A stretch of 32,000 bases of DNA from Candidatus Minimicrobia sp. QA0096 (GCF_963967315.1 NZ_OZ017288.1:510001-542000); one strand, 5' to 3'; numbered from the stretch's first letter, positions 8,040 through 22,425 are shown. A program made the numbers and translations. Notes: generated from the letters alone by a model not told the origin.

Positions 8040-8069
8040 ACTGCTTATATTATATCAAAAATATGATGA

Positions 8070-10601
8070 TTATAGCATGTTGCGAAGGTTTTTGAACTGA
8101 TCTTTGGCTGCGTCAGTTGCATTAGCTGACAGCCTCTTATCAGTAAGAATTGTGTTGATAACTTTCTTAAGATCTTGACGTTTCTTATCAGTAATAACAG
8201 ATGTATTCTTTACAGCTTCTATTAATAACTTAACACCATCAGCCTCAGTGGTGGCTAAAGTTTCTGGTTTATATTTACCACCCTGTAGCCAGTCAGCACA
8301 ATAATTGAGCAAATCTTGACGGTTATTAATAGCGCCCTTAACCATATCGTCAATTAATTTACCGCCCATAAATGAAGCTTTGTTTTTCACGCCGGATGAC
8401 GCTAATGCTGCCGACACGGAAGAATAGAATTCTGGCGGTAATTCGCTAACAAGCTGAGCCACTTCTGTAACAGTTCCGTATTTAATCTGCTCTTCAATTG
8501 CGGCTTCACGTATAAATATGTTATTACTATCCAGTACTGTTCCATTTGAAAGCGTCACGGAATTGCCTAAAGATATCTTTTGTCTTTGCTCAGCGCTCAG
8601 CTTATAATGCTTCATAATCTGATGAGCTTCATCAACAGACTTGGCGTACTCACTGCGGCTGGTTGCTATGGCTGAAGCTAAGGCTGCATTTGCACCAATC
8701 AAATTGCCATTTGCATCTTTGAATACGTTGCCGCCAGCTTTTTCTCGAAGTTCCTTGCTGTTTATCAATTGTTCTGCAAATTCACTGTGCTGCTGACGTT
8801 GAGCGTTGTTCTTAATCAGACCCGCTGTTGCAATTTCGGTTTCTAGGTCTTTAATATCATTCATGAATGCGGTTTGCTGCTGATGGGCTTTCAAATCTTG
8901 TCGAGTTGCATAGGTAGCCGACACGTTTCTCAGAGCACGATCGTATAGAGATCTTTTTTCGTATATATCATCTGGTGCGTGACCCAGCGTAGATTCGAGG
9001 TAGCGATTATCATCTTGTGCAGATAAGAAATCTGAGCGCCTGGAAGCCTGTCTGGCATATAAGTCCGACTTCTTATATTTGGCTGTATTCCTAAATGAAT
9101 TCTCGGCATTTTTCTGTGAAGTTTCCAGATCCTTTTTACGCAATCTACTATTATGATCCATTCGGCGGCGTAAACGATTTGGGTTGAATCGCGTCATATT
9201 GGCATTAGTCAACTTCTTGTTTTTAGTGATCTCACGACGATCTTTAGCCCAGTTTTTGGACTTGTCGTACCAGCCTTTATTCTTGTCATTAACAAACCCA
9301 GCGAATTTGCCTAATACTCCGCCGCTAAGTTTCAGAATTATAGGTGTTAAGGCTAATGGTATAACTTGAACCACCATTCCTAAGATTTGCATTATTCCAC
9401 CATTTGCTCCAGTGGCGTTTTGGATAATTATTATTCCCGCTAGTTGTGCCCCACCGAATATTACAGCGAATGCCGGGAAAAATACTAACATCGTGAGGAA
9501 TAAGTCTCGCCATTTCTTAAACCATTTTTCTGTGCCAGGAAGTAAATAGCAAACGAAGGCTAAAGGTGAAATGATAATTAAGATTACAATCAAAGCTTGA
9601 CGTGCTGCCATAATTAGAAGTACTAAGAGAAGCACTAGACCTATCCCCACTAATGCTGATAGTGCCAATGGTAGCAGTTCTGCGCCCATGGCTACTGTTG
9701 CGACTGCCCCGCCAGCTAAAGCTCCGTTGGATAATATCATCACAATAACTTCTGACCATGTCCAACCTACACCCGTATTTTCTCCTACGGTGGATATGGT
9801 ATTTTTAATCCCCATGAAAGCGTCTTGGAAAGCGTAACCAGTTACGTTTGATAAATCCAGTAATATAGCACAAATCGTAAATGATAAGTTGACCAGCACT
9901 GCCGCAATTATTAACCTAGGGAGCATTTTTTTAACGCCGTAATTGCTAATTCCTACAGAGGTCAATTGTGAGTAGATAATCACCAAAAACGCCACAATAA
10001 ACGCCACATTGCTAATGTTGCGCATAATGACCCACGCCAGATAAATTCCACTGTTTTGGTTGGTCGTTTCTAACGGCTTAGTTTTTAAGAACTCCTGAAG
10101 CGCGCTGTACATATAATCTATGCCATCAGCCAGCCAGTTGGAGAGTGGACAGATAATCCAACCTATTCCCTGCACATCACAGGAAGTACCTGTTGAATTT
10201 TCAGATGGCGATTCAATTGAAATAGTTGAGGTGCTGGTTTGTTCATAGGTGTTTGGTGGCGTAAATGAATAAACTGCGTAGGTTGCGGAACTTAGTGAAG
10301 ATATTTCGCTTGATGGGAAATAAATAACCTTGGCTTCTTTTTTATTCTTATCTTCATTAACATAAACAAGCGAATTATCAGGTAGGTTAAATTGTTTGAT
10401 CTTTTTATCATCACTTACCTTTGTATATTTTTCTTTATTATAGGTTAAATTATGACCACTCCATTCTGCATCTACAGCGTAAACAGAGGTTGAGTGTGTT
10501 AAGTTATTAAGAAAAATGCCCACCAGCATCCCTGCTATCAGCAATACAAACCACTGCAGCCACTTGTTAAGAAACTGCTTACGGGAAATTAACCACTCCA
10601 T
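8070..10601 (-). CDS. Extended VirB6/TrbL-like polytopic membrane protein, paralog 1
   Basis: 843 aa. It has an N-terminal TM/signal, a roughly 110-aa ectodomain, the conserved SCDVQGIGWIICPL motif and then about 6-7 TM helices. These include ARQALIVILIIISPLAFVCYLLPGTEKWFKKW, a TrbL/VirB6-like loop motif. A basic/polar cytoplasmic tail of about 400 aa follows. Clearly homologous to the adjacent 994-aa ORF. Confidence 0.65.
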   Translation of the reverse strand: MEWLISRKQFLNKWLQWFVLLIAGMLVGIFLNNLTHSTSVYAVDAEWSGHNLTYNKEKYTKVSDDKKIKQFNLPDNSLVYVNEDKNKKEAKVIYFPSSEISSLSSATYAVYSFTPPNTYEQTSTSTISIESPSENSTGTSCDVQGIGWIICPLSNWLADGIDYMYSALQEFLKTKPLETTNQNSGIYLAWVIMRNISNVAFIVAFLVIIYSQLTSVGISNYGVKKMLPRLIIAAVLVNLSFTICAILLDLSNVTGYAFQDAFMGIKNTISTVGENTGVGWTWSEVIVMILSNGALAGGAVATVAMGAELLPLALSALVGIGLVLLLVLLIMAARQALIVILIIISPLAFVCYLLPGTEKWFKKWRDLFLTMLVFFPAFAVIFGGAQLAGIIIIQNATGANGGIMQILGMVVQVIPLALTPIILKLSGGVLGKFAGFVNDKNKGWYDKSKNWAKDRREITKNKKLTNANMTRFNPNRLRRRMDHNSRLRKKDLETSQKNAENSFRNTAKYKKSDLYARQASRRSDFLSAQDDNRYLESTLGHAPDDIYEKRSLYDRALRNVSATYATRQDLKAHQQQTAFMNDIKDLETEIATAGLIKNNAQRQQHSEFAEQLINSKELREKAGGNVFKDANGNLIGANAALASAIATSRSEYAKSVDEAHQIMKHYKLSAEQRQKISLGNSVTLSNGTVLDSNNIFIREAAIEEQIKYGTVTEVAQLVSELPPEFYSSVSAALASSGVKNKASFMGGKLIDDMVKGAINNRQDLLNYCADWLQGGKYKPETLATTEADGVKLLIEAVKNTSVITDKKRQDLKKVINTILTDKRLSANATDAAKDQFKNLRNML

Positions 10602-10659: not shown

Positions 10660-13644
10660 CTAGTTCCCTCGTCGCCTAGAATCCTCCAATGCCTTTCTTA
10701 CATCTTCTTGAGATGTAGCGATAATTATTTTCTCCCCAGAATTACTATTATTCTGTTGGTTATTTTGTGGTGATTGTTGAGGACTGCTACCTTGGCTGTT
10801 CTGTTGAGAATTAGAGGAGGATGTATTCTGTGGCGTATTATGGGCAACCACTCCGTGAGCATTTAACGCTTCGGATATTGCTTGATTTATATTTTTCGCA
10901 GTATTTGGATTTGATATGGCAACTTCTCCTGCTTTTATAAATGCATCCTTAGCTTGCTGACTTCCACTAGTAGTAATAGCATCGGATAACCATTTGGTTG
11001 CTGCGCCATTTTGTACTAAGTGTTCCGCCTGTAGATTTCCAGACGCGGCATTATTTACTGCCATATTAGATAGGTCTTGCGTACTACCAACCTCGTCATT
11101 AAGGATAGCATCTCCTAATCCATTTCCTATGATATTATTATCCTTCTTTGCGTATGCAGCTTTAATTGCCCGTTGTTTTATGGAGTTGTCTGTGCCTTTT
11201 AGACTACTCAATACATCCATACGTTCTTTAAAACTACCATTAGCCATAGTATGGTCAATAGCCGCCGCGCGCATAGCCTTTGATTCTACAGTTGTGCCGT
11301 TGGCTATATTGGCTATCTTGTCAGATGTCATACCTTGCAACATTGTGGATGCATTTTCAACGTCGCTTTCGAACGCCTTAGCTACAGTTGCGCGGGCGCG
11401 CGCTCCACCTTTATCCCAACCCATGAATTGACCGAGTGGACTATTGTCCCTCCACGTCGCAAATTTACCCGTTCGCCTGCTTGCGCGTTTTCTATTCATG
11501 AAGTCTGAGTATTTTCTTTTTGTATCGCCAATAACAGAATTGTCAACACGTCCTTTTGCTGCGCCTTTTATATTTCCAGCGAATCGACTATGCGCATTAG
11601 CACCCATTCTGCCTATCTTTGCGCCAATATTGCCCAACGAATTTAAGGAGCTCTGTAGTACGAAAGGTGTGGCGCCTAATGGCAAAATAGACGCTGCCAA
11701 GCCTGCAAACTGCATAGTTATCGCAGTATCATTCGGGTCGCTTGTGGCTGTTGTCATTAATATTGCCCCTGCTAATTTACCAGCTCCATACAAAAGGGAT
11801 ATTATAGGAAAAACCATTAATAACCCCCTAAACATTGATACCCATTTTTTGAATAAACTTTCGGTGTTTGGCAGGAGCCAAGCTGCGAATGCTAGGGGCG
11901 CAATTGATATTAGGAGAACTATAGCTGCTTGTCTAACTATTAGTATGACAAGCACAACAAGTAGCACTAACATTAGAGATAGTAATGTTGGTACACTGAC
12001 TGCAAGCGCTGCAAATAGCACTGTTCCTGTAAGAACTAGAATGCCAGCAACTGCTGCGCCGAGACCGCTCGCTATTGCTGAATTTGAAGACGATCCACCA
12101 ACTCCAGACACCGCTCCTTCAAGAGCTTCTTTTAGTGTAAAGCCAAGGATATTGGATAAGTCGACGGCTAATTGACATATATAAAACGATAGGTTTACTA
12201 ATACAGCTCCCACTATTAATTTTGGTAAGATTTTTTTAATGCCGTAGTTACTTATGCCGATACTACTGACTTGTGAGAAAATTACCCATAAAAATAGCAA
12301 TACAAATATGACGTTTGCTATATCACGAAAGAAGTTCCATGCCTGTTTTGCTCCTACCGCATCAGACCCCTCATCGAAGATAGCAGGTCTAATATTAAGA
12401 AACTGTGATATTACAGAATAAGAAGCATCAGCAATTCCCCCCATAAAAGTCATTAAAGGACAAATAAGCCATCCCATTCCATCAATACCACACGAATTTT
12501 TTTCCTCTTCTTCTCCGCCGCCGTCACCTTCCGACGGAGTTTCTATTTTAGCAGACTGACCTTGCTTACAGGCGTTTATTTTTTCTGGCTGATTTTCATA
12601 TTTTGTGTAGCAATACTTAGGATCATCCTTATGATTTATACCGCGTCTGCAGGCGGCTTTTAGATTTTCGTCTGCCAGCCCTACACACGCGGTGTCTGTG
12701 ACTGACTGCTTTAGGGCTTCTTGATATTTTGGCGCTGACTCCACTAGGCGTTGATATATATTCATACACTGCCATTCAGAAATGTTTGCGTCATAATGAT
12801 TCTGTGGCCATTCACGGTTATTTGATCCGCCCACATTATAACCCTGCCCGTCGCCAGGTAGGTAATATGAGTTAGTTGCATTTCCGTTACCATCTATATT
12901 TGGTATTTCCCAATCTTTTGAGCTGTGTCGTTGAGGTTGAGGATTGTCGTCTTTTACGCAACCTTTTATCATGGACCTCGAAACCAGATATTTTATGCTA
13001 GGATCGGAGTTTTCTATACCATTTTTATAACCTGATAAATTTGTTAGTACTTCAAATATCTTTCCTTTTGAATATACATTAGCGTCAACTTGTCTATCAT
13101 CCTTCCCTCCTGCAGACTTCTTTTTTTTGCCAAATGCACCACTTCCATTTATACATTCGTCTTCGGACAGGGTGTAGTTAGTGCCTCTCCTGTATCCTAT
13201 TTTGCAAAGCAATACCTCTACGGCGGAGGATCTTCCTTGTGGCTGTATGTTGAATTGACTAACAGCTGTACTCATAAGTTCAGCTGAGTTGCAATCAAAA
13301 TATCCTCCCGAGCTATTGTATCCTGTAAAGCCTGGAAAAGTTCCTACGTAAGCTCCGTCGCCAACATTATTAAATATTTTTCCCTTTTTCAGCTCCTCTA
13401 CGTTGCTGTTGGGCGCCTTACTTCCTGCACGGACAAAACATGTATCTAATGCGCGCGCATAAACATAGAACTTATATTTTTCTTGAGTACTGAGGCCATC
13501 AAAGTATCCATCAGCAAATGCGGGTAAAGAGGTTAATAGTGTAGAAATTGGTAATATAAATAAGGCGCTCACGCACAAATATAAAACTATACTCTTAAAG
13601 ACGTTTCTACGACTAAACCCACTCATAAACATAAACACCTTCAT
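10660..13644 (-). CDS. Extended VirB6/TrbL-like polytopic membrane protein, paralog 2, with large Cys-rich ectodomain
   Basis: 994 aa. A signal peptide is followed by an ectodomain of about 350 aa with 12 Cys. Then come SCGIDGMGWLICPL, a multi-TM core (VRQAAIVLLISIAPLAFAAWLLPNTESLFKKW), and a long tail ending in a Q/N/S low-complexity tract. The real start may be the third Met (MSGFSRRN, ATG at 13626), 9 nt after an AAGGTG Shine-Dalgarno. Confidence 0.65.
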   Translation of the reverse strand: MKVFMFMSGFSRRNVFKSIVLYLCVSALFILPISTLLTSLPAFADGYFDGLSTQEKYKFYVYARALDTCFVRAGSKAPNSNVEELKKGKIFNNVGDGAYVGTFPGFTGYNSSGGYFDCNSAELMSTAVSQFNIQPQGRSSAVEVLLCKIGYRRGTNYTLSEDECINGSGAFGKKKKSAGGKDDRQVDANVYSKGKIFEVLTNLSGYKNGIENSDPSIKYLVSRSMIKGCVKDDNPQPQRHSSKDWEIPNIDGNGNATNSYYLPGDGQGYNVGGSNNREWPQNHYDANISEWQCMNIYQRLVESAPKYQEALKQSVTDTACVGLADENLKAACRRGINHKDDPKYCYTKYENQPEKINACKQGQSAKIETPSEGDGGGEEEEKNSCGIDGMGWLICPLMTFMGGIADASYSVISQFLNIRPAIFDEGSDAVGAKQAWNFFRDIANVIFVLLFLWVIFSQVSSIGISNYGIKKILPKLIVGAVLVNLSFYICQLAVDLSNILGFTLKEALEGAVSGVGGSSSNSAIASGLGAAVAGILVLTGTVLFAALAVSVPTLLSLMLVLLVVLVILIVRQAAIVLLISIAPLAFAAWLLPNTESLFKKWVSMFRGLLMVFPIISLLYGAGKLAGAILMTTATSDPNDTAITMQFAGLAASILPLGATPFVLQSSLNSLGNIGAKIGRMGANAHSRFAGNIKGAAKGRVDNSVIGDTKRKYSDFMNRKRASRRTGKFATWRDNSPLGQFMGWDKGGARARATVAKAFESDVENASTMLQGMTSDKIANIANGTTVESKAMRAAAIDHTMANGSFKERMDVLSSLKGTDNSIKQRAIKAAYAKKDNNIIGNGLGDAILNDEVGSTQDLSNMAVNNAASGNLQAEHLVQNGAATKWLSDAITTSGSQQAKDAFIKAGEVAISNPNTAKNINQAISEALNAHGVVAHNTPQNTSSSNSQQNSQGSSPQQSPQNNQQNNSNSGEKIIIATSQEDVRKALEDSRRRGN

Positions 13645-13691: not shown

Positions 13692-14807
13692 TTAGTCTTT
13701 TTTAATATTGTCCCAAGCATTCTGTATCTCAGGGATTTCGTATGCTGGTACGTCTTCACCGTTTATAGTGAATAGCATCGGGCTTCCTTGTTTTTGATAA
13801 TCATGAGGTACACTGATTCCTCGGAAATCAATTATCACAGGAGCTACTCGAATCTTTACTGTGCGGTCTGATACCGCATCAAGGGATTGCTCCTTTGACG
13901 GGTCAAAGTTTAGATTTTCGGCACTCCCCCTGTCAGTGTTAACAATGGTCATTATTTCTTCAACCCCACCATCTCCTGTTAGATAAGCTGCTTGATATTT
14001 AGGAATCCAACCACCGTAATTTAGACCGTTGCATCGTGTAAGATCTCCTTCATCAGAACAAGGGTCTGCGTTATTAGCGTTGTTTCGGACTAGCTTTGGA
14101 TAATTACCGTCTTTTCCTGTAGACTCAAATATTTTATTTGGCTGTCCATCTAGTGGAAATAGGTCGAAAACGTTATAGTCAAGATATCTTTCCTCAGGGT
14201 ATTCTTTATACTCCTCAAAAAAGTCATATATCACCTTTTGAGCACTTCCTATAGCCATACTGCTTAGGTAGGCGTCGCGCATCTTGTCTGCCTCTTCCAC
14301 TCTGCCTTCGTCGACTAGTTTAAAGTAGGATTTGGCCATCAAATTAATACTGTAGGCGCTGTGCTCTCCGATATTTTTCATGACTCCAGGGAGTTCTTCT
14401 TTTGTTGTGATTATCTGACCAAACTCATCAATATCTAATTTTGCAGATTCGCTGTTAGCATGCATGTTTGTATAATTAATGAAGGCTGCTCTCTTGTCGT
14501 TCGTGTCTTTTGCATTATCCAAAGAGTCTAGAAGATTATCCAGTCCCTCAATTTCTGGGATTTCTCTAGCCTCTGGTGATGGAGAACTTGTCTCTTCTAC
14601 TGAAGGTGTAGAATCTTGAGTTTCCTGCGAGGTAGGTGTTGTATCTGGAGTTGGCTCACTGTAGCTTTCACCACAGGCTGACAACGGAGCTACTGAAGCT
14701 AACAGTGCTGCCGCTGTAGCGATGCCCTTTAAGAACTTTTCTTTAGTTGTAGTTGAAAGACTTGTTTTTGAATCGCTTGGGTTAAATTGTTCACGATTTC
14801 GAACCAT
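13692..14807 (-). CDS. Predicted lipoprotein, unknown function (first gene of the T4SS-like operon)
   Basis: The track ORF 13692..15053 runs through a tRNA and a terminator, so the start was moved to Met83 (ATG at 14807). The N-terminus MVRNREQ...KEKFLKGIATAAALLASVAPLSAC|GES has a lipobox (LSAC). A GAGGAAGGA element lies upstream. An S/T/P/E-rich linker follows, then a globular domain of about 300 aa with no motif I recognise. Confidence 0.6.
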   Translation of the reverse strand: MVRNREQFNPSDSKTSLSTTTKEKFLKGIATAAALLASVAPLSACGESYSEPTPDTTPTSQETQDSTPSVEETSSPSPEAREIPEIEGLDNLLDSLDNAKDTNDKRAAFINYTNMHANSESAKLDIDEFGQIITTKEELPGVMKNIGEHSAYSINLMAKSYFKLVDEGRVEEADKMRDAYLSSMAIGSAQKVIYDFFEEYKEYPEERYLDYNVFDLFPLDGQPNKIFESTGKDGNYPKLVRNNANNADPCSDEGDLTRCNGLNYGGWIPKYQAAYLTGDGGVEEIMTIVNTDRGSAENLNFDPSKEQSLDAVSDRTVKIRVAPVIIDFRGISVPHDYQKQGSPMLFTINGEDVPAYEIPEIQNAWDNIKKD

Positions 14808-14886
14808 AACGCTTGGTATCCTTCCTCTGACATTGTCAGATATTTTATTGTAAAAACTTCTTAGACTTTCTAGTCCAATTGCCCAT

Positions 14887-14915
14887 ATCATAACATAAAC
14901 TATACAAAAATGCAA
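14887..14915 (-). promoter_or_regulatory. Putative sigma70-type promoter of the T4SS-like operon
   Basis: On the minus strand the sequence reads TTGCAT, a 17-nt spacer, then TATGAT. It lies downstream of the tRNA-Asp terminator and about 80 nt upstream of the lipoprotein start. Confidence 0.35.
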
Positions 14916-14936
14916 TAAGTTAAGTATATTTTCCAT

Positions 14937-14958
14937 AAAAAAACACCCTGTTAGGGTG
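14937..14958 (-). terminator. Rho-independent terminator after tRNA-Asp
   Basis: The minus strand reads CACCCT-AAC-AGGGTG followed by a run of about 7 T. Coordinates are set in the ORF-track frame and may be off by 1 nt. Confidence 0.6.
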
Positions 14959-14968
14959 AAAATATCTG

Positions 14969-15046
14969 TGGCGCGCTCGACCGGATTCGAACCGGCGATC
15001 TCCTCCGTGACAGGGAGGCGTGATAGGCCAACTTCACTACGAGCGC
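14969..15046 (-). tRNA. tRNA-Asp (anticodon GUC), CCA encoded
   Basis: Minus strand: GCGCTCG TA GTGA AGTTGGCCTA TCAC G CCTCC CTGTCAC GGAGG AGATC GCCGG TTCGAAT CCGGT CGAGCGC G CCA. The cloverleaf folds cleanly. Coordinates may be off by 1 nt. Confidence 0.9.
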
Positions 15047-15061
15047 ATATCAATACCCCTT

Positions 15062-15149: not shown

Positions 15150-15521
15150 ATGGCAAAAAGAAATATTGTAATCAGTATATTCATCGCAACAGTAATCGCA
15201 GGGAGCGTTTTTATACCCAAAGTAGCTTTGGCTGCCGGCTGCGGCGGCGCGGAAACCTCTGTTATTTCTTGTGAAGGCGAAGGTAGTACGGCAATTATCA
15301 ACATAATCAAGCAAGTTATTAAAATCTTAACCGCTGGAGTTTTGGTCGCGGCGGTTGGTGCTGTTATATATGGCGCATTCTTATATACCACTTCTGAGGG
15401 TAGTCCAGATAAGATAAAAAAAGCACGTGAAGTCTGGACGAATACTGTTATTGGGATAATAATGTTTGCGTTTATGGTGGCAATTACTAACTTTATTATT
15501 CCAGGAGGAGTTTTCGATTAA
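15150..15521 (+). CDS. VirB2/TrbC-like T4SS pilin paralog A (Cys-pair class)
   Basis: 123 aa. A Sec signal (cleavage near ALA|AG) precedes a short exposed segment with two Cys (GCGGAETSVISCEG). Two hydrophobic helices are separated by a TSEGSPDKIKKAR loop, which is VirB2/TrbC topology. The core is shared with the six other paralogs. Confidence 0.7.
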   Translation: MAKRNIVISIFIATVIAGSVFIPKVALAAGCGGAETSVISCEGEGSTAIINIIKQVIKILTAGVLVAAVGAVIYGAFLYTTSEGSPDKIKKAREVWTNTVIGIIMFAFMVAITNFIIPGGVFD

Positions 15522-15949
15522 TGAAGAAAATTATAATAGCAATGTCTTTAATGATTATAGGGTCGTTTGGGGCGAGCGTAACTTTCCCGGGTATTTCTTT
15601 TGCGGACGATGCATGTTCTAATAAGGGGAAGATTTTAACATTAAAACCATGGTATAGCGGCTTGACTAATAGTGACTGTTCCCTTAAAAATCCAGGCACA
15701 GATACTAATTCTCAAGCTAACTATATTTGGAAAATCGCGCTTAATATCGTTGATGATTTGCTGCAGCTTATCGGTTACACGACTGTTGGATATATTATGT
15801 ACGGTGGATTCTTGATGATGACCAGTAACGGTGCTCCAGACAAGGCTGCTCATGGGCGAAAGACTATTATGAGTGCCGCGATCGGTCTGGTTATCGCCCT
15901 AGCTTCTGTTGCGTTGGTTAACTTTATATCATCAAAGATAGGGGTATAA
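15521..15949 (+). CDS. VirB2/TrbC-like T4SS pilin paralog B (Cys-pair class, longest variable region)
   Basis: 142 aa. A signal peptide (SFA|DD) precedes a variable segment with two Cys (ACSNKGKILTLKPWYSGLTNSDCS). The two-helix core has the loop TSNGAPDKAAHGR. The ATG overlaps the previous stop (TAATG), and AGGAGGAG lies upstream. Confidence 0.7.
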   Translation: MKKIIIAMSLMIIGSFGASVTFPGISFADDACSNKGKILTLKPWYSGLTNSDCSLKNPGTDTNSQANYIWKIALNIVDDLLQLIGYTTVGYIMYGGFLMMTSNGAPDKAAHGRKTIMSAAIGLVIALASVALVNFISSKIGV

Positions 15950-15950
15950 A

Positions 15951-16235
15951 ATGAGATATATGGAATTTTTTGCTGGATTATTAGGAAAAGCAGATGATCT
16001 TGGCGTGCCACAGAATAACGATGTAGATATTATGAAGTTTGTTAATTTGGCGCTCTGGGTGGCTGGTGTCGTGGCTGTTATTGTGGTGATTATTGCTGGA
16101 ATAAATTATTCCCTGTCTTCCGGCGATCCCGCTAAGACGGCCAGCGCAAAGAATGCTATTTTATATTCAGTTATTGGTTTGGTTATTATTGCTAGTGCGA
16201 TTGCTATAACAGGTTATATTATAGGAAAGGTTTAA
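15951..16235 (+). CDS. VirB2/TrbC-like pilin-core paralog C (no obvious signal peptide)
   Basis: 94 aa. It retains the two-helix core (LALWVAGVVAVIVVIIAGINYSLSSGDPAKTASAKNAILYSVIGLVIIASAIAI) but lacks a hydrophobic Sec leader. The start could also be the internal Met4. Confidence 0.6.
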   Translation: MRYMEFFAGLLGKADDLGVPQNNDVDIMKFVNLALWVAGVVAVIVVIIAGINYSLSSGDPAKTASAKNAILYSVIGLVIIASAIAITGYIIGKV

Positions 16236-16236
16236 A

Positions 16237-16617
16237 ATGAAGATTTTTACAAAAATCCTGACGGCTGGAATACTAATAATTGGGCTCCTTGGCGTGTTTA
16301 CTCCAGCGGTATCCGCGGCTAACGGTATTGATATTTGCTCAAATGGAAATGAAAACTCTGTCTATTGTAAAAATAAGGGCAGTGGCGAAACTCAAGTGAA
16401 CGGTATTATAAAAACTATCGTTGAAGTTTTACTTACGGCCGTTGGTGCTATTTCGATTATTATGATAGTTATTGGCGGTATTATGTTTGCACTTTCCAGC
16501 GGTGATGCTCAGAAAGCTGCAAAAGCCAGGAATACTGTTTTATATGCTGTCGTTGGCTTAATAGTTTCTATATTCGCTTCAGCGATTGTTAATTTTGTAT
16601 TTAATAGGTTTAATTAG
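16237..16617 (+). CDS. VirB2/TrbC-like T4SS pilin paralog D (Cys-pair class)
   Basis: 126 aa. A signal (VSA|AN) precedes ICSNGNENSVYCKNKG and the core GAISIIMIVIGGIMFALSSGDAQKAAKARNTVLYAVVGLIV. Confidence 0.7.
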   Translation: MKIFTKILTAGILIIGLLGVFTPAVSAANGIDICSNGNENSVYCKNKGSGETQVNGIIKTIVEVLLTAVGAISIIMIVIGGIMFALSSGDAQKAAKARNTVLYAVVGLIVSIFASAIVNFVFNRFN

Positions 16618-16625
16618 GAGAAAGT

Positions 16626-17003
16626 ATGAAAAAATCAATAATATCAATAGCAATTATGACCTGTGCGGTATTTGGAACATCAGTTTTATCTACTGCTTCC
16701 CTGCCAGGTAGCGCTTCTGCCCAGGTATCTGATGGTATTAATACCGCTACAACATCGGAAATGAAAGGTAAAAGTATTGACGGTGATAAAGGTCTAATAA
16801 AAACAGTAGTTAATGTTTTGCTTTGGGCTGTAGGTATTCTGTCTGTTATTATGATTATTTTTAGTGGATTTCGCTATATTACTTCGGCTGGCGACGCTTC
16901 AAAGACAAAATCTGCTCAGAGTACGCTCACCTATTCAGTGGTTGGACTAATTGTGGCTATTATGGCATACGCGATCGTCAATATGGTTACAAATCGACTA
17001 TAA
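16626..17003 (+). CDS. VirB2/TrbC-like T4SS pilin paralog E (Cys-free class)
   Basis: 125 aa. AGGAGAAAG RBS, signal (ASA|Q), and core GILSVIMIIFSGFRYITSAGDASKTKSAQSTLTYSVVGLIVAIMAYAIVNMV. Confidence 0.75.
   Translation: MKKSIISIAIMTCAVFGTSVLSTASLPGSASAQVSDGINTATTSEMKGKSIDGDKGLIKTVVNVLLWAVGILSVIMIIFSGFRYITSAGDASKTKSAQSTLTYSVVGLIVAIMAYAIVNMVTNRL
16963..16989 (+). repeat. 27-nt near-identical segment shared by pilin paralogs E and F (second copy at 17411-17437)
   Basis: TGGCATACGCGATCGTCAATATGGTTA versus TGGCATACGCAATCGTCAATATGGTTA, 26/27 identical. Both encode the C-terminal (M/L)AYAIVNMV segment. Confidence 0.8.
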
Positions 17004-17019
17004 TAAATCCATAATTAGT

Positions 17020-17048
17020 TTTACAAATAACAGATAAAAATGTATAAT
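17020..17048 (+). promoter_or_regulatory. Putative internal promoter for pilin paralog F
   Basis: TTTACA, a 17-nt spacer, then TATAAT, within the only sizeable gap (76 nt) in the array. An AAGGAG RBS follows, 9 nt before the ATG at 17080. Confidence 0.4.
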
Positions 17049-17079
17049 AGTAATATCATTAAACAAGGAGAAAATAACA

Positions 17080-17457
17080 ATGAATAAATTAAAATTAATC
17101 TTGGCGGGACTACTGGTAGTACCAACTGTTGCTTTGGCTGTAGCCCCAGCTGCAAGCGCTGAAGGTGATTTTACCTTAACTAATGGCGTAAATAGTGCAA
17201 GAGGAGAAGGTGTGAGTGACAATACTGCAAGCCCTGAGTCTCTAGTTAAGCAATTTGTAAATATATTCTTGTTTGCCGTCGGTGCATTAAGCGTTATTAT
17301 GCTTATCTGGGGCGGTATCCGATACACTACTTCAGCTGGTGACAGCAATAAGGTTACAGCTGCTAAGAATACAGTTTTGTATGCAATTGTCGGTTTGGTG
17401 GTTGCAATTTTGGCATACGCAATCGTCAATATGGTTATTGATAAGTTTAAGGGTTAA
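17080..17457 (+). CDS. VirB2/TrbC-like T4SS pilin paralog F (Cys-free class)
   Basis: 125 aa. Signal (ASA|E), then core GALSVIMLIWGGIRYTTSAGDSNKVTAAKNTVLYAIVGLVVAILAYAIVNMV. Confidence 0.75.
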   Translation: MNKLKLILAGLLVVPTVALAVAPAASAEGDFTLTNGVNSARGEGVSDNTASPESLVKQFVNIFLFAVGALSVIMLIWGGIRYTTSAGDSNKVTAAKNTVLYAIVGLVVAILAYAIVNMVIDKFKG

Positions 17458-17471
17458 TCTACCCTACCGTT

Positions 17472-17504
17472 AAAAAAGAGCCTCGCTGATGAGGTTCTTT
17501 TTTT
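17472..17504 (+). terminator. Rho-independent terminator ending the pilin array
   Basis: The stem is GAGCCTC, loop GCTGAT, then GAGGTTC (one G-U pair), followed by TTTTTTT. An A-tract precedes the stem, so it could act in both directions. Confidence 0.65.
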
Positions 17505-17556: not shown

Positions 17557-18051
17557 TTACAGAACTTGAATCTTCTTTGCTTTTTCTTGCTTTATCTTTT
17601 CAAAAGTAATTGTCAAAACGCCATCTTTTAATTCTGCCTTAACACCTTCTTCATTTACAGCGGTTGGCAATGCTAATGTACGACTGAATTCGCCCCAGTA
17701 GCATTCTTGGATGTGCCATTGGCGAACATCTGCTTCGTCACCGCTAGACAGTGTGCCGCTAATTGTTAAAATACCGTCAGAAATGCTTACGTCTAGGTCG
17801 TTTCGATCTACGCCAGCGGTACGAGCTTTGATAACTAGGTTGTTTTCTGTCTCGAAAACGTCAACAGCCAATTGTCCCATTGCGTCATCAGCTTCATCTT
17901 CCCAATTATCGTCGGATCGCGTTGTTGGTGTGCTATTGCTTCTACTATTGTCGTCGTTAAAACCAGGTAGCAGATCGTCGTTATCATCGTCAATAAACGC
18001 CGCAGCCAATTCCTGTTCTGTTAGTAATGTATCATCTTGCTTTCGGGCCAT
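17557..18051 (-). CDS. Small heat-shock protein, Hsp20/alpha-crystallin family
   Basis: The alpha-crystallin domain reads LAVDVFETENNLVIKARTAGVDRNDLDVSISDGILTISG...WGEFSRTLALP...VKAELKDGVLTITFEK. The track start at 18063 is GTG. The ATG at 18051 (MARKQDD) sits 4 nt after GGAGGA and is preferred. The N-terminus has an acidic extension. Confidence 0.9.
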   Translation of the reverse strand: MARKQDDTLLTEQELAAAFIDDDNDDLLPGFNDDNSRSNSTPTTRSDDNWEDEADDAMGQLAVDVFETENNLVIKARTAGVDRNDLDVSISDGILTISGTLSSGDEADVRQWHIQECYWGEFSRTLALPTAVNEEGVKAELKDGVLTITFEKIKQEKAKKIQVL

Positions 18052-18096
18052 AATTTCCTCCACTTTTATAATAGGCTCATTGACAAAGTCTTTATT

Positions 18097-18125
18097 AGTA
18101 TAACTGTAATGTGCGTTATAATCAA
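18097..18125 (-). promoter_or_regulatory. Putative hsp20 promoter
   Basis: The minus strand reads TTGATT, a 17-nt spacer, then TATACT. No CIRCE element is present here. Confidence 0.35.
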
Positions 18126-18155
18126 CAGAGAAAGGCTTAAAACGTAAAAATTACA

Positions 18156-18830
18156 ATGTTTGACACGCTATTATCAATCATCGCTCCTCACCACTGTTAT
18201 AAGTGCGGTGAAACGGGTGGTATTTTATGCTTAGATTGTAAAAAATACATCACGAGTCGGAAGTATGATATGTGCGTATTGTGTGGCGATTTATTGGAGA
18301 ATGGCAATTTATGTAAAAAGCATAATCTTCCCTGTGATATGATCTGGTGTTTTTCACGGCGTACAGGTGTTGTTGCAAAGATCATTGATGATTATAAGTT
18401 TAACCGCGTTCAGGCAGCGGCTGGATTGCTAAGTGAGTTCTTAGACGAAGCTCTGCCTGAATTGCCGTCAGATGCGGCAATTGTACCAATCCCTACAATT
18501 TCTAAGAATATTCGACGCCGTGGATTTGATCATATCCGAAAAATTGCCGTTAAACTATCTCGACGTAGAAAAATAGAATATTGTTCCCTGCTTCGGCGTA
18601 GAAACAATGTCACTCAGCATTTCACAAAATCTTCCGCCCAGAGAAAACGCCAAGCAAAGGAGTTTTTTGAAATTGCGGGTAAAGTTGATAAAAATAAGAG
18701 GTATATCATTATTGATGATATATTTACGACTGGCTCAACTGTGTTGGCGGCGGCGGAATGTTTGAAGAAAAATGGTGCTAAACACGTGGAAATTGCGGTT
18801 ATTGCCAGGCACGGGCGCCCGAAGCTATGA
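18156..18830 (+). CDS. comFC: ComF family protein (ComFC-like phosphoribosyltransferase-fold competence protein)
   Basis: The N-terminus carries a 4-Cys zinc-finger pattern (CYKCG...CLDC...CVLCG). The C-terminus carries the PRTase motif YIIIDDIFTTGSTVLAAAECLKKNGA. Confidence 0.8.
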   Translation: MFDTLLSIIAPHHCYKCGETGGILCLDCKKYITSRKYDMCVLCGDLLENGNLCKKHNLPCDMIWCFSRRTGVVAKIIDDYKFNRVQAAAGLLSEFLDEALPELPSDAAIVPIPTISKNIRRRGFDHIRKIAVKLSRRRKIEYCSLLRRRNNVTQHFTKSSAQRKRQAKEFFEIAGKVDKNKRYIIIDDIFTTGSTVLAAAECLKKNGAKHVEIAVIARHGRPKL

Positions 18831-19277
18831 GTGATGATAATGACTGCCGCGATGGATTTCTTGGGCGCGGTACAATTGTTCAGCTAAAATAAGACGAACT
18901 AATTGGTGCGGAAACACTAAGTTTGATAATGACCAGACGATGTTGGATTTTTGGCGCAAGTCGCTGGTAACTCCGTAAGCGCCACCGATGATAAAAATAA
19001 TATGCTTATTGATGTTGCCTGTAATTAAATTAGATAATTCTGGCGATGATAAGTTTTTTCCGCGCTCATCGAGCAAAATAACGAAGTCGTCTGAATTAAG
19101 GCGTGAAAAAATACGCTCAGACTCTTCCTGGCGCGCTCTGTCGCCTTCAAAGCTTGAATGCGGTAGAATAATCATTTCCGCAGCAAAAGGTGCTCGTAGA
19201 CGCTCTAAAAAACGAAAAATGCCTGGCTGAACCCAGGCTTCGTGCTTTTTTCCGATTGTTATAATGGTGATTTTCAT
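18825..19277 (-). CDS. rlmH: 23S rRNA (pseudouridine1915-N3)-methyltransferase RlmH
   Basis: SPOUT-family pattern: MKITIITIGKK...IIFIIGGAYGV...WSLSNLVFPHQLVRLILAEQLYRAQEIHRGSHYH. The track ORF extends to 19367 but that extension overlaps tRNA-Ser, so the start was set at Met31 (19277). Confidence 0.85.
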   Translation of the reverse strand: MKITIITIGKKHEAWVQPGIFRFLERLRAPFAAEMIILPHSSFEGDRARQEESERIFSRLNSDDFVILLDERGKNLSSPELSNLITGNINKHIIFIIGGAYGVTSDLRQKSNIVWSLSNLVFPHQLVRLILAEQLYRAQEIHRGSHYHHS

Positions 19278-19285
19278 AATATCTA

Positions 19286-19373
19286 TGGCGGAGAGAGAGG
19301 GATTCGAACCCTCGATGAGTTGCCCCATACCGCTTTTCGAGAGCGGCCAGTTCAACCACTCCTGCACCTCTCC
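19286..19373 (-). tRNA. tRNA-Ser (anticodon CGA), long variable arm, CCA encoded
   Basis: Minus strand: GGAGAGGTGCAGGAGTGGTTGAACTGGCCGCTCTCGAAAAGCGGTATGGGGCAACTCATCGAGGGTTCGAATCCCTCTCTCTCCGCCA. The anticodon loop is CT-CGA-AA. Coordinates were cross-checked against the frame of the overlapping track ORF. Confidence 0.9.
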
Positions 19374-19385
19374 ATAAAGCTAATG

Positions 19386-19462
19386 TGGTACACCCGGCAA
19401 GATTCGAACTTACGACCTCTGGCTCCGCAAGCCAGCGCTCTATCCAGCTGAGCTACGGGTGC
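19386..19462 (-). tRNA. tRNA-Arg (anticodon GCG), CCA encoded
   Basis: Minus strand: GCACCCG TA GCTC AGCTGGATA GAGC G CTGGC TTGCGGA GCCAG AGGTC GTAAG TTCGAAT CTTGC CGGGTGT A CCA. Confidence 0.85.
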
Positions 19463-19539
19463 ATACAGCCTTTCGAAAATCGATTGGCTATAATAAAAAT
19501 ATAAGGTACCTTCATTGCTATAAAGCACTGAACTTTTGT

Positions 19540-19568
19540 ATTCTACCACATAAAATATAGCCAATCAA
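19540..19568 (-). promoter_or_regulatory. Putative promoter upstream of tRNA-Arg/tRNA-Ser/rlmH
   Basis: The minus strand reads TTGATT, a 17-nt spacer, then TAGAAT. The -10 hexamer is preceded by TGG, giving an extended -10 (TGnTAGAAT). Confidence 0.4.
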
Positions 19569-19569
19569 G

Positions 19570-20088
19570 CTATAGCTTTATCAGTCGAATAAACTTCTCT
19601 AAGGCGTCCGGCTTAATTTCTTGCATTGGTAGGCGTGCTCCGAGCATATCGACAATTCTCTCGCCCTCTGCTTCGGAAAAGTAAATAGTTAAACCTGGCG
19701 AAAATCGTTTTACTGGCAATAATAGAATCGAATGTTGGTTGTTTTCGTGAATTAATCCAAATGCGCGAAATTCGCTAAAATCGTGTAAAACATCGGCGAT
19801 GTAAATACCTTTGGGGCTAATCGCGTAGTTTATTACTTGTGGGGTTTTGTTTGATAATACAAACAAGGCTACAGCCATAATTGGCAACAAAACAGCGAAA
19901 GTCCAGTTCTTAAACACCAAAATTGCCAAAGCCATTAATCCTATCAACACAATTACAAAAAACACGTACCACAATTTACCGCGCTGAACCTGCACGCCTT
20001 CTGGCGCGTTCCAAGCTATTGGCTCGGTTAAATCAATCCTGTCAGATGCTGGCGCTTCAAAGTCTTGGTTTTCTGGACTATCGTTCAT
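19570..20088 (-). CDS. Hypothetical membrane protein (two TM helices plus a small C-terminal domain)
   Basis: 172 aa with an acidic N-terminus and two adjacent TM helices (WYVFFVIVLIGLMALAILVF, FAVLLPIMAVALFVL). A soluble domain of about 90 aa follows. The gene lies 35 nt downstream of orphan pilin G on the same strand. No motif recognised. Confidence 0.6.
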   Translation of the reverse strand: MNDSPENQDFEAPASDRIDLTEPIAWNAPEGVQVQRGKLWYVFFVIVLIGLMALAILVFKNWTFAVLLPIMAVALFVLSNKTPQVINYAISPKGIYIADVLHDFSEFRAFGLIHENNQHSILLLPVKRFSPGLTIYFSEAEGERIVDMLGARLPMQEIKPDALEKFIRLIKL

Positions 20089-20123
20089 GACGTTAGTATA
20101 TCACGATGAGAATTAGTGAACAA

Positions 20124-20531
20124 TTAAACGTTAGTGGTTGATCCGCCGCTTAAAGCTGCGCCAAGGATGAAGTTAATGATGGCGTAAGCGAAGACTGCGA
20201 TTAATAGACCAATGATTGCGTATAGAATTGTGTTTTTGGCGTTTGTGACGGATTCTTTTTTACCGCCAGATATTACGTAGCGGAAACCGCCGAAGATTAG
20301 CATAACGACACTTAAGACGCCGACGCCGAACAGCATAATGTTGATGGCTCGCCTTACGATTGATGAATCACCATTAGCCAAGTTGGATGGCGTATTGTCG
20401 CCGCGTGCCGCGTTAATTCCAGCTGGAGCGCCACCTTCGCCTAATGCAGAAACTGGAGCGGTTGCCAAAACTATACCGAACCCAATTGTAAGTAATCCTA
20501 TTGTAATTTTAGAAATATATCCTTTTACCAT
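20124..20531 (-). CDS. VirB2/TrbC-like T4SS pilin paralog G (orphan copy, Cys-free class)
   Basis: 135 aa. Signal (VSA|L), then GINAARGDNTPS and the core GVLSVVMLIFGGFRYVISGGKKESVTNAKNTILYAIIGLLIAVFAYAIINFI. It is closest by eye to paralogs E and F. Confidence 0.75.
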   Translation of the reverse strand: MVKGYISKITIGLLTIGFGIVLATAPVSALGEGGAPAGINAARGDNTPSNLANGDSSIVRRAINIMLFGVGVLSVVMLIFGGFRYVISGGKKESVTNAKNTILYAIIGLLIAVFAYAIINFILGAALSGGSTTNV

Positions 20532-20537
20532 AATTCT

Positions 20538-20567
20538 ATTATACTCTATTTACGATAAAGCTATCAA
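20538..20567 (-). promoter_or_regulatory. Putative promoter of pilin G, predicting a leaderless mRNA
   Basis: The minus strand reads TTGATA, an 18-nt spacer, then TATAAT. Only 6 nt (AGAATT) separate the -10 hexamer from the ATG, and there is no Shine-Dalgarno. Confidence 0.4.
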
Positions 20568-20603
20568 TAATTGCACTTCTATGGTACACTAAATAGTGAA
20601 TTT

Positions 20604-20696
20604 GGAGGAGTACCCAAGTGGCTGAAGGGGACGGTTTGCTAAATCGTTAGTATGGAGAGATCTGTAGCGGGGGTTCGAATCCCCCCTCCTCCGCCA
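20604..20696 (+). tRNA. tRNA-Ser (anticodon GCU), CCA encoded
   Basis: GGAGGAGTACCCAAGTGGCTGAAGGGGACGGTTTGCTAAATCGTTAGTATGGAGAGATCTGTAGCGGGGGTTCGAATCCCCCCTCCTCCGCCA. The anticodon loop is TT-GCT-AA and the variable arm is long. Confidence 0.9.
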
Positions 20697-20713
20697 AAAT
20701 TCAGAGATAGTAC

Positions 20714-20803
20714 GGAAGGGTGACCGAGTGGTTGAAGGTACCGGTCTTGAAAACCGGCGTGCGGTAAAACGTACCGAGGGTTCGAATCCCTCCCCTTCCG
20801 CCA
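20714..20803 (+). tRNA. tRNA-Ser (anticodon UGA), CCA encoded
   Basis: GGAAGGGTGACCGAGTGGTTGAAGGTACCGGTCTTGAAAACCGGCGTGCGGTAAAACGTACCGAGGGTTCGAATCCCTCCCCTTCCGCCA. The anticodon loop is CT-TGA-AA. Confidence 0.9.
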
Positions 20804-20823
20804 AAACAGTACTATTGAAGTCG

Positions 20824-20859
20824 AAAAATAGGAGATTCGTGCGAGTTTCCTATTTTTTT
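20824..20859. terminator. Bidirectional rho-independent terminator (tRNA-Ser pair / VanZ-like gene)
   Basis: AAAAATAGGA, a 14-nt loop, then TCCTATTTTTTT. The stem is AATAGGA/TCCTATT with A- and T-tracts on either side. Confidence 0.6.
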
Positions 20860-22015
20860 ATTTCTCTTGTTTGACTTGAATCGTACTTTTGTAACTTGCG
20901 CCAGATAGACGATCAAACATAAAACGTCGATTAAATAACGCTACGACAATTGTAACTAATACGAATAATATGAATGCTAAGAATGTAATTGCGAATAGAC
21001 AGAGAAACAATAGCGAATTCGCTTCCTTATTAAATTCATCCGCGAGGTAAAACAAGCCTGCGGGAATGATGCGAAAATATATCGTGAGTAAGATTCCTCT
21101 GAAAATTGTGCGAATCCGTTTTTTATTTTCAAATTTGAGTCCAAACTTTAATAATGCACTACCAAAAGTTTTACCATTCAGTAGAGGAATTAGGCTAAAA
21201 TAGAGGGCTAAAAATAGCGAAAACGGAAGTTGGGTTTTTGATAAGGTGTAAGGAATACGGATGATAACAGCGTCGATTATTAGAGATAAACTAACACGAA
21301 TTCCAGAAACTCGTGAGCCAGCCTCAAAGGATTTTTCATCTATTTCTTCCCTGGACGGAAGTAGCCACGTCGCAAACCAGCCCAGAAAGTAACCGACGCA
21401 TCCGCCTATCGTGTTCTGGATGATATCATCGACGTCGGCTAATCGGTAAGGTCCTGAATAGATGAAATAAAGTCCAGACAATTGAGTTATCTCAAAGAAT
21501 AAACTTAAAATAGCCGTCAATAATAACGTCTTTTTAAGGCTACATTTGAAATAGTAGCGCAGGTAAATTCCGAACGGAATGAGCATTAAAATGTTGAAAG
21601 CAGGAACGTAAAAAGTGGGATGTTTTATCGCCGTAATCCAAGTCGAGCTATCTGTTAATACAAGTGGACTATCCTTTATAAAATCTGCGACGAATGAAAA
21701 CGGAATTAAATTCAGATTTTCTGCGTAAGTTGTGTGAACAGATTCTGGATTTGGTAACGGTAAAATAACTAAGAAATATACAGTTAATAAATACAGAATA
21801 AAGGAATAGAAAATCAAAGTCCTAAGCTTATTGACGGAGCCGTATTTTCGATAGTTCGCAATCATATACGGCAACGTGATAAGAAAAGCTAAAATTGGAA
21901 AAAGGATTAGTGCAACCTTAATAGAAATTAGGTATCCCATAGACTCCATTATACTAAACATTTTCTCTATAAAGTTCAGGATGACTATTTCTATGCTGGG
22001 AAATATACTTGACAA
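20858..22015 (-). CDS. VanZ-like / RDD-domain fusion membrane protein
   Basis: The N-terminal half has VanZ-like motifs (NLIPFSF...ADVDDIIQNTIGGCVGYFLG). The C-terminal half has an RDD-like pattern (RVSLSLIIDAVII...LNGKTFGSALLKFGL...MFDRLSGASY). The track start at 22015 is TTG. Internal ATGs at 21961, 21949 and 21940 are alternatives. Confidence 0.65.
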   Translation of the reverse strand: MSSIFPSIEIVILNFIEKMFSIMESMGYLISIKVALILFPILAFLITLPYMIANYRKYGSVNKLRTLIFYSFILYLLTVYFLVILPLPNPESVHTTYAENLNLIPFSFVADFIKDSPLVLTDSSTWITAIKHPTFYVPAFNILMLIPFGIYLRYYFKCSLKKTLLLTAILSLFFEITQLSGLYFIYSGPYRLADVDDIIQNTIGGCVGYFLGWFATWLLPSREEIDEKSFEAGSRVSGIRVSLSLIIDAVIIRIPYTLSKTQLPFSLFLALYFSLIPLLNGKTFGSALLKFGLKFENKKRIRTIFRGILLTIYFRIIPAGLFYLADEFNKEANSLLFLCLFAITFLAFILFVLVTIVVALFNRRFMFDRLSGASYKSTIQVKQEK

Positions 22016-22082
22016 AAAACAAAGCTTATGCTAACATTGTAATCAGTATTCTAAAAATAGATACAAAAAAGAAAGAATAAAA

Positions 22083-22424
22083 ATGAATTTAGTACAACAG
22101 TTTTTCACCGTTACAACTATGTTTGTCAGTTTGAATGTAGCGTTTGGTGTGCTGCTGCACGACACCAACGTTGATAAAGCGTTTTTGTCATCTTGGAAAA
22201 CATATAGCGTTCAAAGTGACGTTGAGGGTGAAATAAAAATGCCAGAAACAAAGCCTCATACTCATCCAGAACACGCTCAATTGTCAAATGTGCTGAAAGA
22301 AGGTTCGGCGCGACCGCGAACTACGCCTCGTAATAACGATAAGAAGCGATTGCGCCAAAAATATGCCGCTCGTGGACAGCATACTTTTGATGGTTATCAC
22401 CTTGATTTTGAAGGTGTGAGTTAA
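22083..22424 (+). CDS. Hypothetical small protein
   Basis: 113-aa ORF filling an otherwise empty 400-bp gap. It has one N-terminal hydrophobic segment, then a basic/His-containing tail (KPHTHPEH). No recognisable motif, and coding status is uncertain. Confidence 0.35.
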   Translation: MNLVQQFFTVTTMFVSLNVAFGVLLHDTNVDKAFLSSWKTYSVQSDVEGEIKMPETKPHTHPEHAQLSNVLKEGSARPRTTPRNNDKKRLRQKYAARGQHTFDGYHLDFEGVS

Positions 22425-22425
22425 A

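Follow-up and report, generated by a model that had tools for sequence, protein, structure and literature searches.

Tandem arrays of diverged pilin genes beside type IV secretion system (T4SS) genes were first seen in G1 Saccharibacteria in 2018/2020, where the TM7x genes were described as a 'Sec-secreted array' (McLean et al., bioRxiv 10.1101/258137). A later survey (Quinonero-Coronel et al. 2025, PMC12102498) put the number of arrays at 441, each of 2-11 pilin genes and spread over 383 Patescibacteria assemblies, an array being at least two pilin genes, in tandem or one gene apart, near virB4. Within-array identity in the survey had a mean of 25% and a maximum of 54%, and a comparison with Bartonella and Anaplasma was drawn. 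The role of the Saccharibacteria T4SS was called completely unknown in a 2024 perspective. The locus analyzed here is a family of seven pilin genes in a 32,000-nucleotide stretch of Candidatus Minimicrobia sp. QA0096 (NZ_OZ017288.1:510001-542000), referred to throughout as the window, with positions counted from its first letter. Six open reading frames (ORFs), pilins A to F, lie in tandem near virB4 and the seventh, orphan pilin G, lies apart. Identity among them is 23-45%, low as in the published arrays (~25%). The array is a member of the published class, in the genus of the first description, and as a discovery adds nothing new. An earlier note on this DNA had regarded multiplied virB2 genes as known mainly from Anaplasmataceae; that view is outdated, arrays being documented in Patescibacteria and in this genus. 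What is added here is a fixed order with one-to-one orthology, a dimorphism of pilin E and the existence of module fusions, of which no mention was found in the consulted sections of these two papers and of Wang et al. 2023 (PMC10633639).

On balance, it was judged probable that the seven ORFs are fixed, functionally distinct PF18895 paralogs of the chromosomal, monoderm-type T4SS of a Candidatus Nanosynbacter (Saccharibacteria) epibiont, co-assembled as a heteromeric conduit. This reading was preferred because each pilin has one-to-one orthologs, gene order is kept, A to E appear to be coupled, the array genes are essential in Southlakia epibionticum, and natural fusions of pilin modules occur. 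Transposon sequencing (Tn-seq) of S. epibionticum found SEML1_0014-0019 essential and the orphan SEML1_0024 dispensable (Wang et al. 2023, PMC10633639). For SEML1_0014-0019, 0-4 insertions were recovered from 11-15 in the input, with the classification GD/ES/ES; for SEML1_0024, on the opposite strand, 22-23 were recovered from 19 in the input, with the classification NE (Table S1 of that paper). The GD/ES/ES result for each array gene argues for non-redundancy, and for the last array gene polarity cannot explain the result. The window and ML1 loci agree in gene order, strands and the neighbors VirB6, Hsp20, ComF and tRNA-Ser. Encoded lengths, compared by length and order only, are 132/185/103/126/127/138 plus 144 amino acids (aa) in ML1 and 123/142/94/126/125/125 plus 135 aa in the window. 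The window has in common with the Patescibacteria arrays PF18895 and a set comprising a hydrolase, VirB4, a TrsD-like protein, PrgI, two VirB6-like proteins, six pilins, Hsp20, ComF and an opposite-strand orphan. S. epibionticum differs in having no gene at the position where the window has a hypervariable lipoprotein gene, between VirB6 and the array.

The tandem genes are on the plus strand and were found as the earlier note had described them, six together and one orphan. Pilin A (15150-15521, 123 aa), the first array gene, scored 29.6 bits against PF18895, pilin B (15521-15949, 142 aa) 34.0 bits, pilin C (15951-16235, 94 aa) 48.9 bits, the top score of the seven, pilin D (16237-16617, 126 aa) 39.0 bits, pilin E (16626-17003, 125 aa) 34.1 bits, and pilin F (17080-17457, 125 aa), the last array gene, 45.6 bits. 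Orphan pilin G (20124-20531, minus strand, 135 aa; 36.2 bits) lies 2.7 kb beyond the tandem six and so outside 15150-17457, the range that the earlier note had given for all seven; the tandem six are ~9 kb from virB4. When a profile hidden Markov model (HMM) made from the seven pilins was run against all window ORFs of at least 50 aa, exactly those seven were recovered. Pilins A and B overlap by 1 nt, the gaps B-C, C-D and D-E are 1, 1 and 8 nt, and each of these junctions has a Shine-Dalgarno (SD) sequence; A to E are read as a translationally coupled operon.

The gathering threshold of Pfam PF18895 (T4SS_pilin) is 26.6 bits and was passed by all seven pilins (29.6-48.9 bits, E values 7e-7 to 7e-13), far beyond chance. 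Against PF04956 (TrbC/VirB2; threshold 27.9 bits), weak, co-linear matches were obtained for five pilins (B-F; E values 0.002-0.04), all of them sub-threshold. Pilin F had the top score (18.5 bits, E value 0.0023), B-E scored 14.6-16.8 bits, and A and G had no match. PF04956 was also matched by 14 of 46 diverse family members, with a best E value of 2.5e-8. For the pilin counterparts of S. epibionticum, an E value of ~1e-6 (1.6e-6) against PF04956 is given in Table S2 of Wang et al. 2023 (PMC10633639). Three things connect the pilins with VirB2/TrbC: this profile overlap among family members, a common architecture and the gene neighborhood. The earlier assignment to a VirB2/TrbC-like pilin family was borne out by the seven PF18895 matches, the T4SS neighborhood, the predicted hairpin and the 14 of 46 relatives. 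The family is large: the profile of the seven matched 80,324 cluster representatives at an E value of 1e-3 or below and 24,125 at 1e-10 or below. VirB2/TrbC/TraA proteins (PF04956; T-pilus 8cue, 8exh, 8fai) likewise have a leader, a hydrophobic two-helix hairpin and a short, positive, polar loop, are encoded beside VirB3, VirB4 and VirB6 homologs, and show a weak, consistent profile similarity to the window pilins. The window pilins differ in their sub-threshold PF04956 scores, in lacking direct similarity to Ti VirB2 and F TraA, in a monoderm host, in pilus formation being putative, and in being seven diverged paralogs where VirB2/TrbC/TraA is one gene.

A second relationship was found within monoderms. 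NCBIfam NF045849 (Mbov_0395 family pilin-like conjugal transfer protein), an 80-position profile, was matched end to end by all seven pilins (E values 8e-10 to 5e-4). Scores were 19.8-38.3 bits, best for C and all below the equivalog cut-off of 40 bits, which marks the pilins as related, not as members. Since these matches indicate that a VirB2-like hairpin is not foreign to monoderm T4SSs, co-option from diderm systems is less needed as an explanation, and monoderm MPF_FATA-type systems may have the hairpin pilin as a native component, not one borrowed from diderms. The Mycoplasma integrative and conjugative element (ICE) protein of this profile (Mbov_0395/ICE_MMCAP2_0565) resembles the window pilins in its 80-residue hairpin, its VirB4 neighbor and its MPF_FATA-type T4SS of a wall-less monoderm. 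It is single-copy and on a mobile element, whereas the window genes are chromosomal, multiplied and mostly leader-bearing.

A common C-terminal module had been claimed for all seven proteins, and paralog identity was indeed higher in it (35.6%, range 26-56) than upstream of it (22.6%). The loop motif (S/T)(S/A)GD..K..A(K/R)N given for the module was complete in C, D and F and near-complete in E; A, B and G deviate from it, and across the seven pilins the only invariant loop residues are S and G. Hydropathy gave three hydrophobic segments in A, D, E, F and G, namely a signal-peptide core and two transmembrane helices. In B, two segments reached the hydropathy threshold, helix 1 being amphipathic and less hydrophobic than in the other pilins; in C, the two segments are the two helices and there is no signal peptide. 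In the other six, the leader begins with an n-region containing 2 K/R, continues with a hydrophobic core and ends in a small-x-A site (A ALA, B SFA, D VSA, E ASA, F ASA, G VSA), and the sites are kept in orthologs. Cleavage is putative and was judged by inspection; hydropathy and these sites agree with the earlier statement that six pilins carry signal peptides and C does not. Pilin C was 93-101 aa long and without a leader in all related loci and is a conserved leaderless member, not a truncated copy; it has an acidic N-tail of 26 residues and the most archetypal hairpin of the seven.

Mature N-segments measured 16-40 residues, shorter than the 20-55 that had been suggested. That of A has 16 residues, with a Cys pair (C31/C41) kept in 15 genomes, and that of B has 40 residues, with a conserved Cys pair (C32/C53) and an ILTLKPWY motif. 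Pilin D has a conserved Cys pair (C34/C44) and a haplotype-dependent C-terminal tail. The pairs in the exported segments of A, B and D suggest a disulfide-stapled surface loop. Orphan G has the loop SGGKKES and a C-terminal GAALSGGSTTNV tail, and its nearest paralog is F (44.5%). Net charge was +1 to +2 for the loops and 0 to -4 for the N-segments (A and B corrected by hand); positive loops and neutral to acidic N-segments fit an arrangement in which the loop lies inside and the two termini lie outside. An AlphaFold2 (AF2) model of F, from a shallow alignment of 18 sequences, comprised a leader helix, disorder at 27-51, a helix at 52-84, a loop at 85-88 and a helix at 89-124, with a mean predicted local distance difference test (pLDDT) score of 63 and about 70-81 in the hairpin. 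The earlier note had staked its proposal on a helical hairpin, and a two-helix hairpin is what AF2 gave for F.

When species-representative genomes were scanned with the 994-aa VirB6-like protein of the window (described below), only oral Saccharibacteria were found. The nearest was Candidatus Nanosynbacter sp. TM7-087 (96%), whose pilin ortholog already bears the NCBI name 'pilin'. The layout of six plus one and the gene lengths were alike in 14 Nanosynbacter genomes, that is, in all loci with enough flank, and in these G kept a constant relative position and strand. Orthologs at each position were on average 77-95% identical (A 95%, G 95%), against 23-45% for paralogs within a genome, and the nearest neighbor of every protein was the ortholog of the same position (105/105). 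The seven pilins are fixed, ancient paralogs. In an Hsp20-anchored scan of metagenomes, the order orphan ... Hsp20, F ... C, B, A persisted to 65% Hsp20 identity. A, B and the short leaderless C were still classifiable at positions 1-3 of these loci, D, E, F and G formed a closer subfamily, and a few lineages had five tandem genes. On one metagenomic contig (loci L055 and L076), the orphan pilin is flanked by two complete arrays that differ in lineage type, which may be a true duplication or transfer or else a chimeric assembly.

Across orthologous arrays, pooled dN/dS (nonsynonymous over synonymous substitution rates) was 0.03-0.20 for the module, and the N-segments had values of 0.05-0.47; this is purifying selection in every region, and the array is conserved in relatives. 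Given the low ratios of the N-segments, the parts called 'hypervariable' on comparing paralogs prove conserved once orthologs are compared. The locus was found to contain neither silent cassettes nor invertible elements, nor any long DNA repeats or flanking inverted repeats. Only one DNA repeat is shared between paralogs, 80 nt long with 70% identity, and all seven genes are complete ORFs with a start and ribosome-binding site (RBS)- or promoter-like sites. Purifying selection together with this absence of switching machinery argues that the differences among paralogs reflect division of labor, not switching. A pilE/pilS- or msp2-type cassette system was rejected: there are seven complete ORFs, no silent partial copies, and no long or inverted repeats.

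Variation of a different kind was seen between close genomes, in which VirB4 is 100% and Hsp20 99% identical and dS is 0.1-0.3. The dN of pilins B-F was 3-20 times that of housekeeping neighbors; that of A and G was not raised. Pilin B has two allele classes (dN 0.01-0.02 versus 0.08-0.09). Pilin E is the most variable, with two allele classes in near-identical genomes (dS ~1.1, dN ~0.26, 63-66% identity), a divergence equal to that seen between far more distant lineages. The E classes are linked to the B alleles and to long or short C-terminal tails of D and E, haplotype I having D of 126 aa and E of 125 aa and haplotype II D of 140-142 aa and E of 137 aa (loci L003, L004, L010, L013, L014, L016, L022, L024, L029, L034 and L045). 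Optional C-terminal tails occur in D, E and F. Variation of the 994-aa VirB6-like protein and of the neighboring lipoprotein is loosely linked to the E class.

The top profile matches in other lineages were proteins in which one leader precedes 2-17 pilin modules in a single chain (P0121-P0139 and others), for example one of 552 aa with 6 modules and one of 1775 aa with 17. One 4-module fusion is a verified ORF (8001-9095 of locus L017), in a six-gene pilin array of an NCBI metagenome-assembled genome (GCA_030698495.1), and its AF2 model has four consecutive hairpins. The first module of 4-module fusions also has a CG…C pair, like the Cys pairs of A, B and D. No mention of multi-module fusions was found in the consulted sections of the 2025 survey (PMC12102498).

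Promoter-like, SD and terminator calls were made at consensus level, the promoter scan covering 7.3 kb. Its two best sites precede F and G. In the E-F gap, a promoter-like site at 17020-17048 (plus strand; TTTACA-17-TATAAT, 11/12 match, joint best in the scan) is followed by an AAGGAG RBS, the consensus and strongest SD of the array. The site of G, at 20538-20567 (minus strand; TTGATA-18-TATAAT), also has an 11/12 match; its -10 box ends 6 nt ahead of ATG, and the G mRNA is probably leaderless. A 22-nt stretch around the -10 boxes is common to F (17020-17063, plus strand) and G (20531-20567, minus strand). From these sites, F and G would be expressed from promoters of their own. Pilin A, nearly leaderless, has a TATAAG -10-like box 10 nt ahead of its ATG. 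A terminator-like hairpin after F (17477-17504, plus strand; AGAGCCTC-GCTGAT-GAGGTTCT, with a T run 3' and an A run 5') was read from the sequence and was not listed by the consensus scan.

Under the heteromeric reading, the following course of events is proposed. Six pilins would be made with a cleavable Sec signal peptide and C would insert without one. From hydropathy, charge and AF2, each would form a membrane hairpin whose positive loop faces the cytoplasm and whose divergent N-segment, acidic or Cys-bridged, lies outside. A to E would come from one translationally coupled operon, and F and G from their own promoters. The VirB4/PrgI/VirB6 machinery would extract the pilins and co-assemble them into a heteromeric tube or stalk through the cell wall towards the host bacterium. 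Pilin F may be the bulk subunit, A to E a specialized base, adaptor or tip, and G an accessory, dispensable variant of F. The allele classes of E, D and B may tune host or partner specificity. More speculatively, the tube may be the ~9-nm 'lance' or conduit seen by cryo-electron tomography (cryo-ET) in another Saccharimonadia parasite, M. amalyticus (Mycosynbacter), in which a host-induced tube is 8.6-9.0 nm wide and 61-70 nm long with a barbed tip. A fuller version of this is put forward tentatively, as possible but short of likely: a short tube of defined order (base or adaptor, F shaft, tip) would be the ~9-nm barbed lance and the first pilus-like T4SS structure in a monoderm, the poly-pilins would be hard-wired versions of it, and the E/D/B haplotypes with the VirB6-like protein would set partner specificity. 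By analogy only, type IV pili and type II pseudopili likewise combine a conserved hydrophobic assembly module with divergent exposed parts, and non-redundant operon paralogs with a separately expressed main subunit. They differ in an N-terminal single helix with a globular head, a prepilin peptidase and PilB/PilC, and their fold and machinery are unrelated.

Several points weigh against the heteromeric conduit. No filament of these proteins has been observed in any organism, and monoderm T4SSs are generally described without pili. The PF04956 threshold was reached by no window protein, and A and G did not match that model at all. A profile search of PDB sequences returned unrelated weak matches only, hhalign against Ti VirB2 gave a probability of 0.4%, and an HMM of 571 family sequences gave no signal against Ti VirB2 or F TraA. 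In a Foldseek search of the F hairpin model against PDB, the best E value was 0.98, with generic hairpins only, and no VirB2 or TraA chain was among the 50 matches listed; a helical hairpin is too generic for such a test, which is therefore uninformative on likeness to VirB2/TraA. The Tn-seq essentiality of the upstream array genes could be polar. That F is the major subunit and that the tube is the cryo-ET lance are guesses, and promoters, signal-peptide cleavage and topology are consensus-level predictions.

Some of the same observations favor the main rival, in which the pilins stay in the membrane as components of the T4SS channel (a ring, stalk or wall-spanning sleeve) of fixed stoichiometry and form no extended pilus. 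Besides the lack of known pili in monoderm T4SSs, fusions with fixed module numbers (4, 6, up to 17) are explained by a defined oligomer no less well than by an open polymer. Filament preparations from a Saccharimonadia parasite yielded immunoglobulin (Ig)-like Pam pili only, in a preprint that is silent on T4SS and VirB2. A related hairpin protein is encoded by Mycoplasma ICEs, for which no pilus is known. On the other hand, six of the seven pilins have exported, divergent and partly disulfide-capable N-segments, which suggest surface exposure, and the family reaches TrbC/VirB2 at profile level. The ~9-nm tube seen by cryo-ET in a relative is in the size class of conjugative pili, whose width is comparable. 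A channel without a pilus was considered rather unlikely.

It was held improbable that the pilins are interchangeable alternatives, receptor- or host-specific or antigenic, of which one or few are used at a time. The paralogs do differ most in the exposed N-segment, the raised dN of B-F, the deep dimorphism of E and the optional tails of D, E and F are what alternatives might show, and hypervariability extends to the VirB6-like protein and the lipoprotein encoded nearby. The 2025 survey, too, proposes adaptation to different host strains (PMC12102498). Every paralog, however, has a long-kept one-to-one ortholog in the same order, the N-segments are conserved between orthologs (dN/dS 0.05-0.47), A to E appear translationally coupled, and neither silent cassettes nor long repeats or invertible promoters occur at the locus. 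On a single host, S. epibionticum moreover requires every one of its six array genes (PMC10633639). The Anaplasmataceae rvh system and Bartonella are similar in that an obligately host-associated bacterium has more than one virB2 copy and the copies have diverged; there they are diderm PF04956 pilins, thought to be differentially expressed and to serve antigenic or host-surface variation (PMC12102498). The window copies differ in being, as predicted, co-transcribed, in an anciently fixed order, in being essential in a relative, and in belonging to a monoderm MPF_FATA-like system. Of the three options in the earlier note, a heteromeric filament fits best, as a heteromeric assembly; receptor-specific alternatives and antigenic diversification are unsupported as reasons for seven copies, with orthologs conserved and no cassettes. 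Some diversification at the population level stands for B, D and E. Small secreted effectors delivered by the T4SS, the label of a TM7x transcriptome preprint ('six putative effector genes', three of them up-regulated in stable symbiosis), are scarcely credible, for although N-terminal signal peptides are present, Sec-dependent export is not known as the usual route for T4SS effectors, the two long hydrophobic helices after the signal peptide are typical of integral membrane hairpins, and the threshold of the PF18895 pilin family is passed.

The T4SS genes (VirB4, PrgI, TrbL-like and VanY hydrolase) lie within 1.5-14 kb of the array on the opposite strand, with synteny in 14 genomes, and the neighborhood is a monoderm-type T4SS of Patescibacteria. 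Outermost is a membrane-anchored VanY/M15 peptidoglycan peptidase protein of 990 aa (1394-4366, minus strand; C-terminal PF02557 VanY, 45.8 bits), which would be the functional counterpart of VirB1/PrgK. It is followed by a VirB4-type ATPase of 619 aa (4384-6243, minus strand; PF19044 P-loop_TraG, 97.7 bits, and AAA_10), which is 100% identical across the genus. The next protein (294 aa, 6243-7127, minus strand) had no Pfam match; it weakly matched TrsD/TraD and the N-terminal portion of VirB4 models (NCBIfam TrsD, E value 4e-4, and VirB4 models, all sub-threshold). It resembles a split-off VirB4 N-domain or a TrsD homolog, overlaps the VirB4 start by 1 nt, and is syntenic to SEML1_0009 of S. 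epibionticum (Wang et al. 2023, PMC10633639). A PrgI/VirB3-like protein of 303 aa (7128-8039, minus strand; PF12666 PrgI, 53.2 bits) comes next.

Two extended proteins stand between PrgI and the lipoprotein gene. The VirB6/TrbL-like protein of 994 aa (10660-13644, minus strand) matched PF04610 TrbL below threshold (E value 7.5e-4), is transcribed divergently from the array, and is 34-96% identical among genomes with 100% identical VirB4 and 99% identical Hsp20. The rvh T4SS has more than one extended VirB6-like protein, as does the window. The second, a polytopic membrane protein of 843 aa (8070-10601, minus strand) with no Pfam match, is probably a VirB6-like paralog, because it has stretches such as GISNYG(V/I)KK(M/I)LP(R/K)LI in common with the 994-aa protein, the translations being compared by eye, and because it is syntenic to SEML1_0011, which was matched to a T4SS protein by its authors. 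The lipoprotein gene (13692-14933, minus strand; lipobox LSAC), between the VirB6-like gene and the array, is 29-97% identical among the same genomes. Its mechanical ORF (13692-15053, minus strand) spans tRNA-Asp (14969-15046, minus strand), so that the true start is internal, probably shortly before the KGIATAAALLASVAPLSAC lipoprotein signal. VirB5, a TraF-type cyclase and a type IV coupling protein (T4CP) were not recognized among the annotated window ORFs. On the other side of the array, 17557-31066 was housekeeping by Pfam and tRNA scans (Hsp20, a ComF-like phosphoribosyltransferase, RlmH, five tRNAs, a VanZ-family protein, ValS, a FemAB-family protein, TsaD and GroES), with MurE- and MurF-like ligases called from translations alone. 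Gene content there partly agrees with SEML1_0020-0050 of S. epibionticum.

A cultivated Saccharibacterium cannot grow epibiotically without the T4SS and its pilins. Saccharibacteria are unable to make their own nucleotides, amino acids and lipids, and such auxotrophy makes the T4SS a leading candidate for extracting host resources. The details given here narrow the hypotheses to a co-assembled, heteromeric structure.

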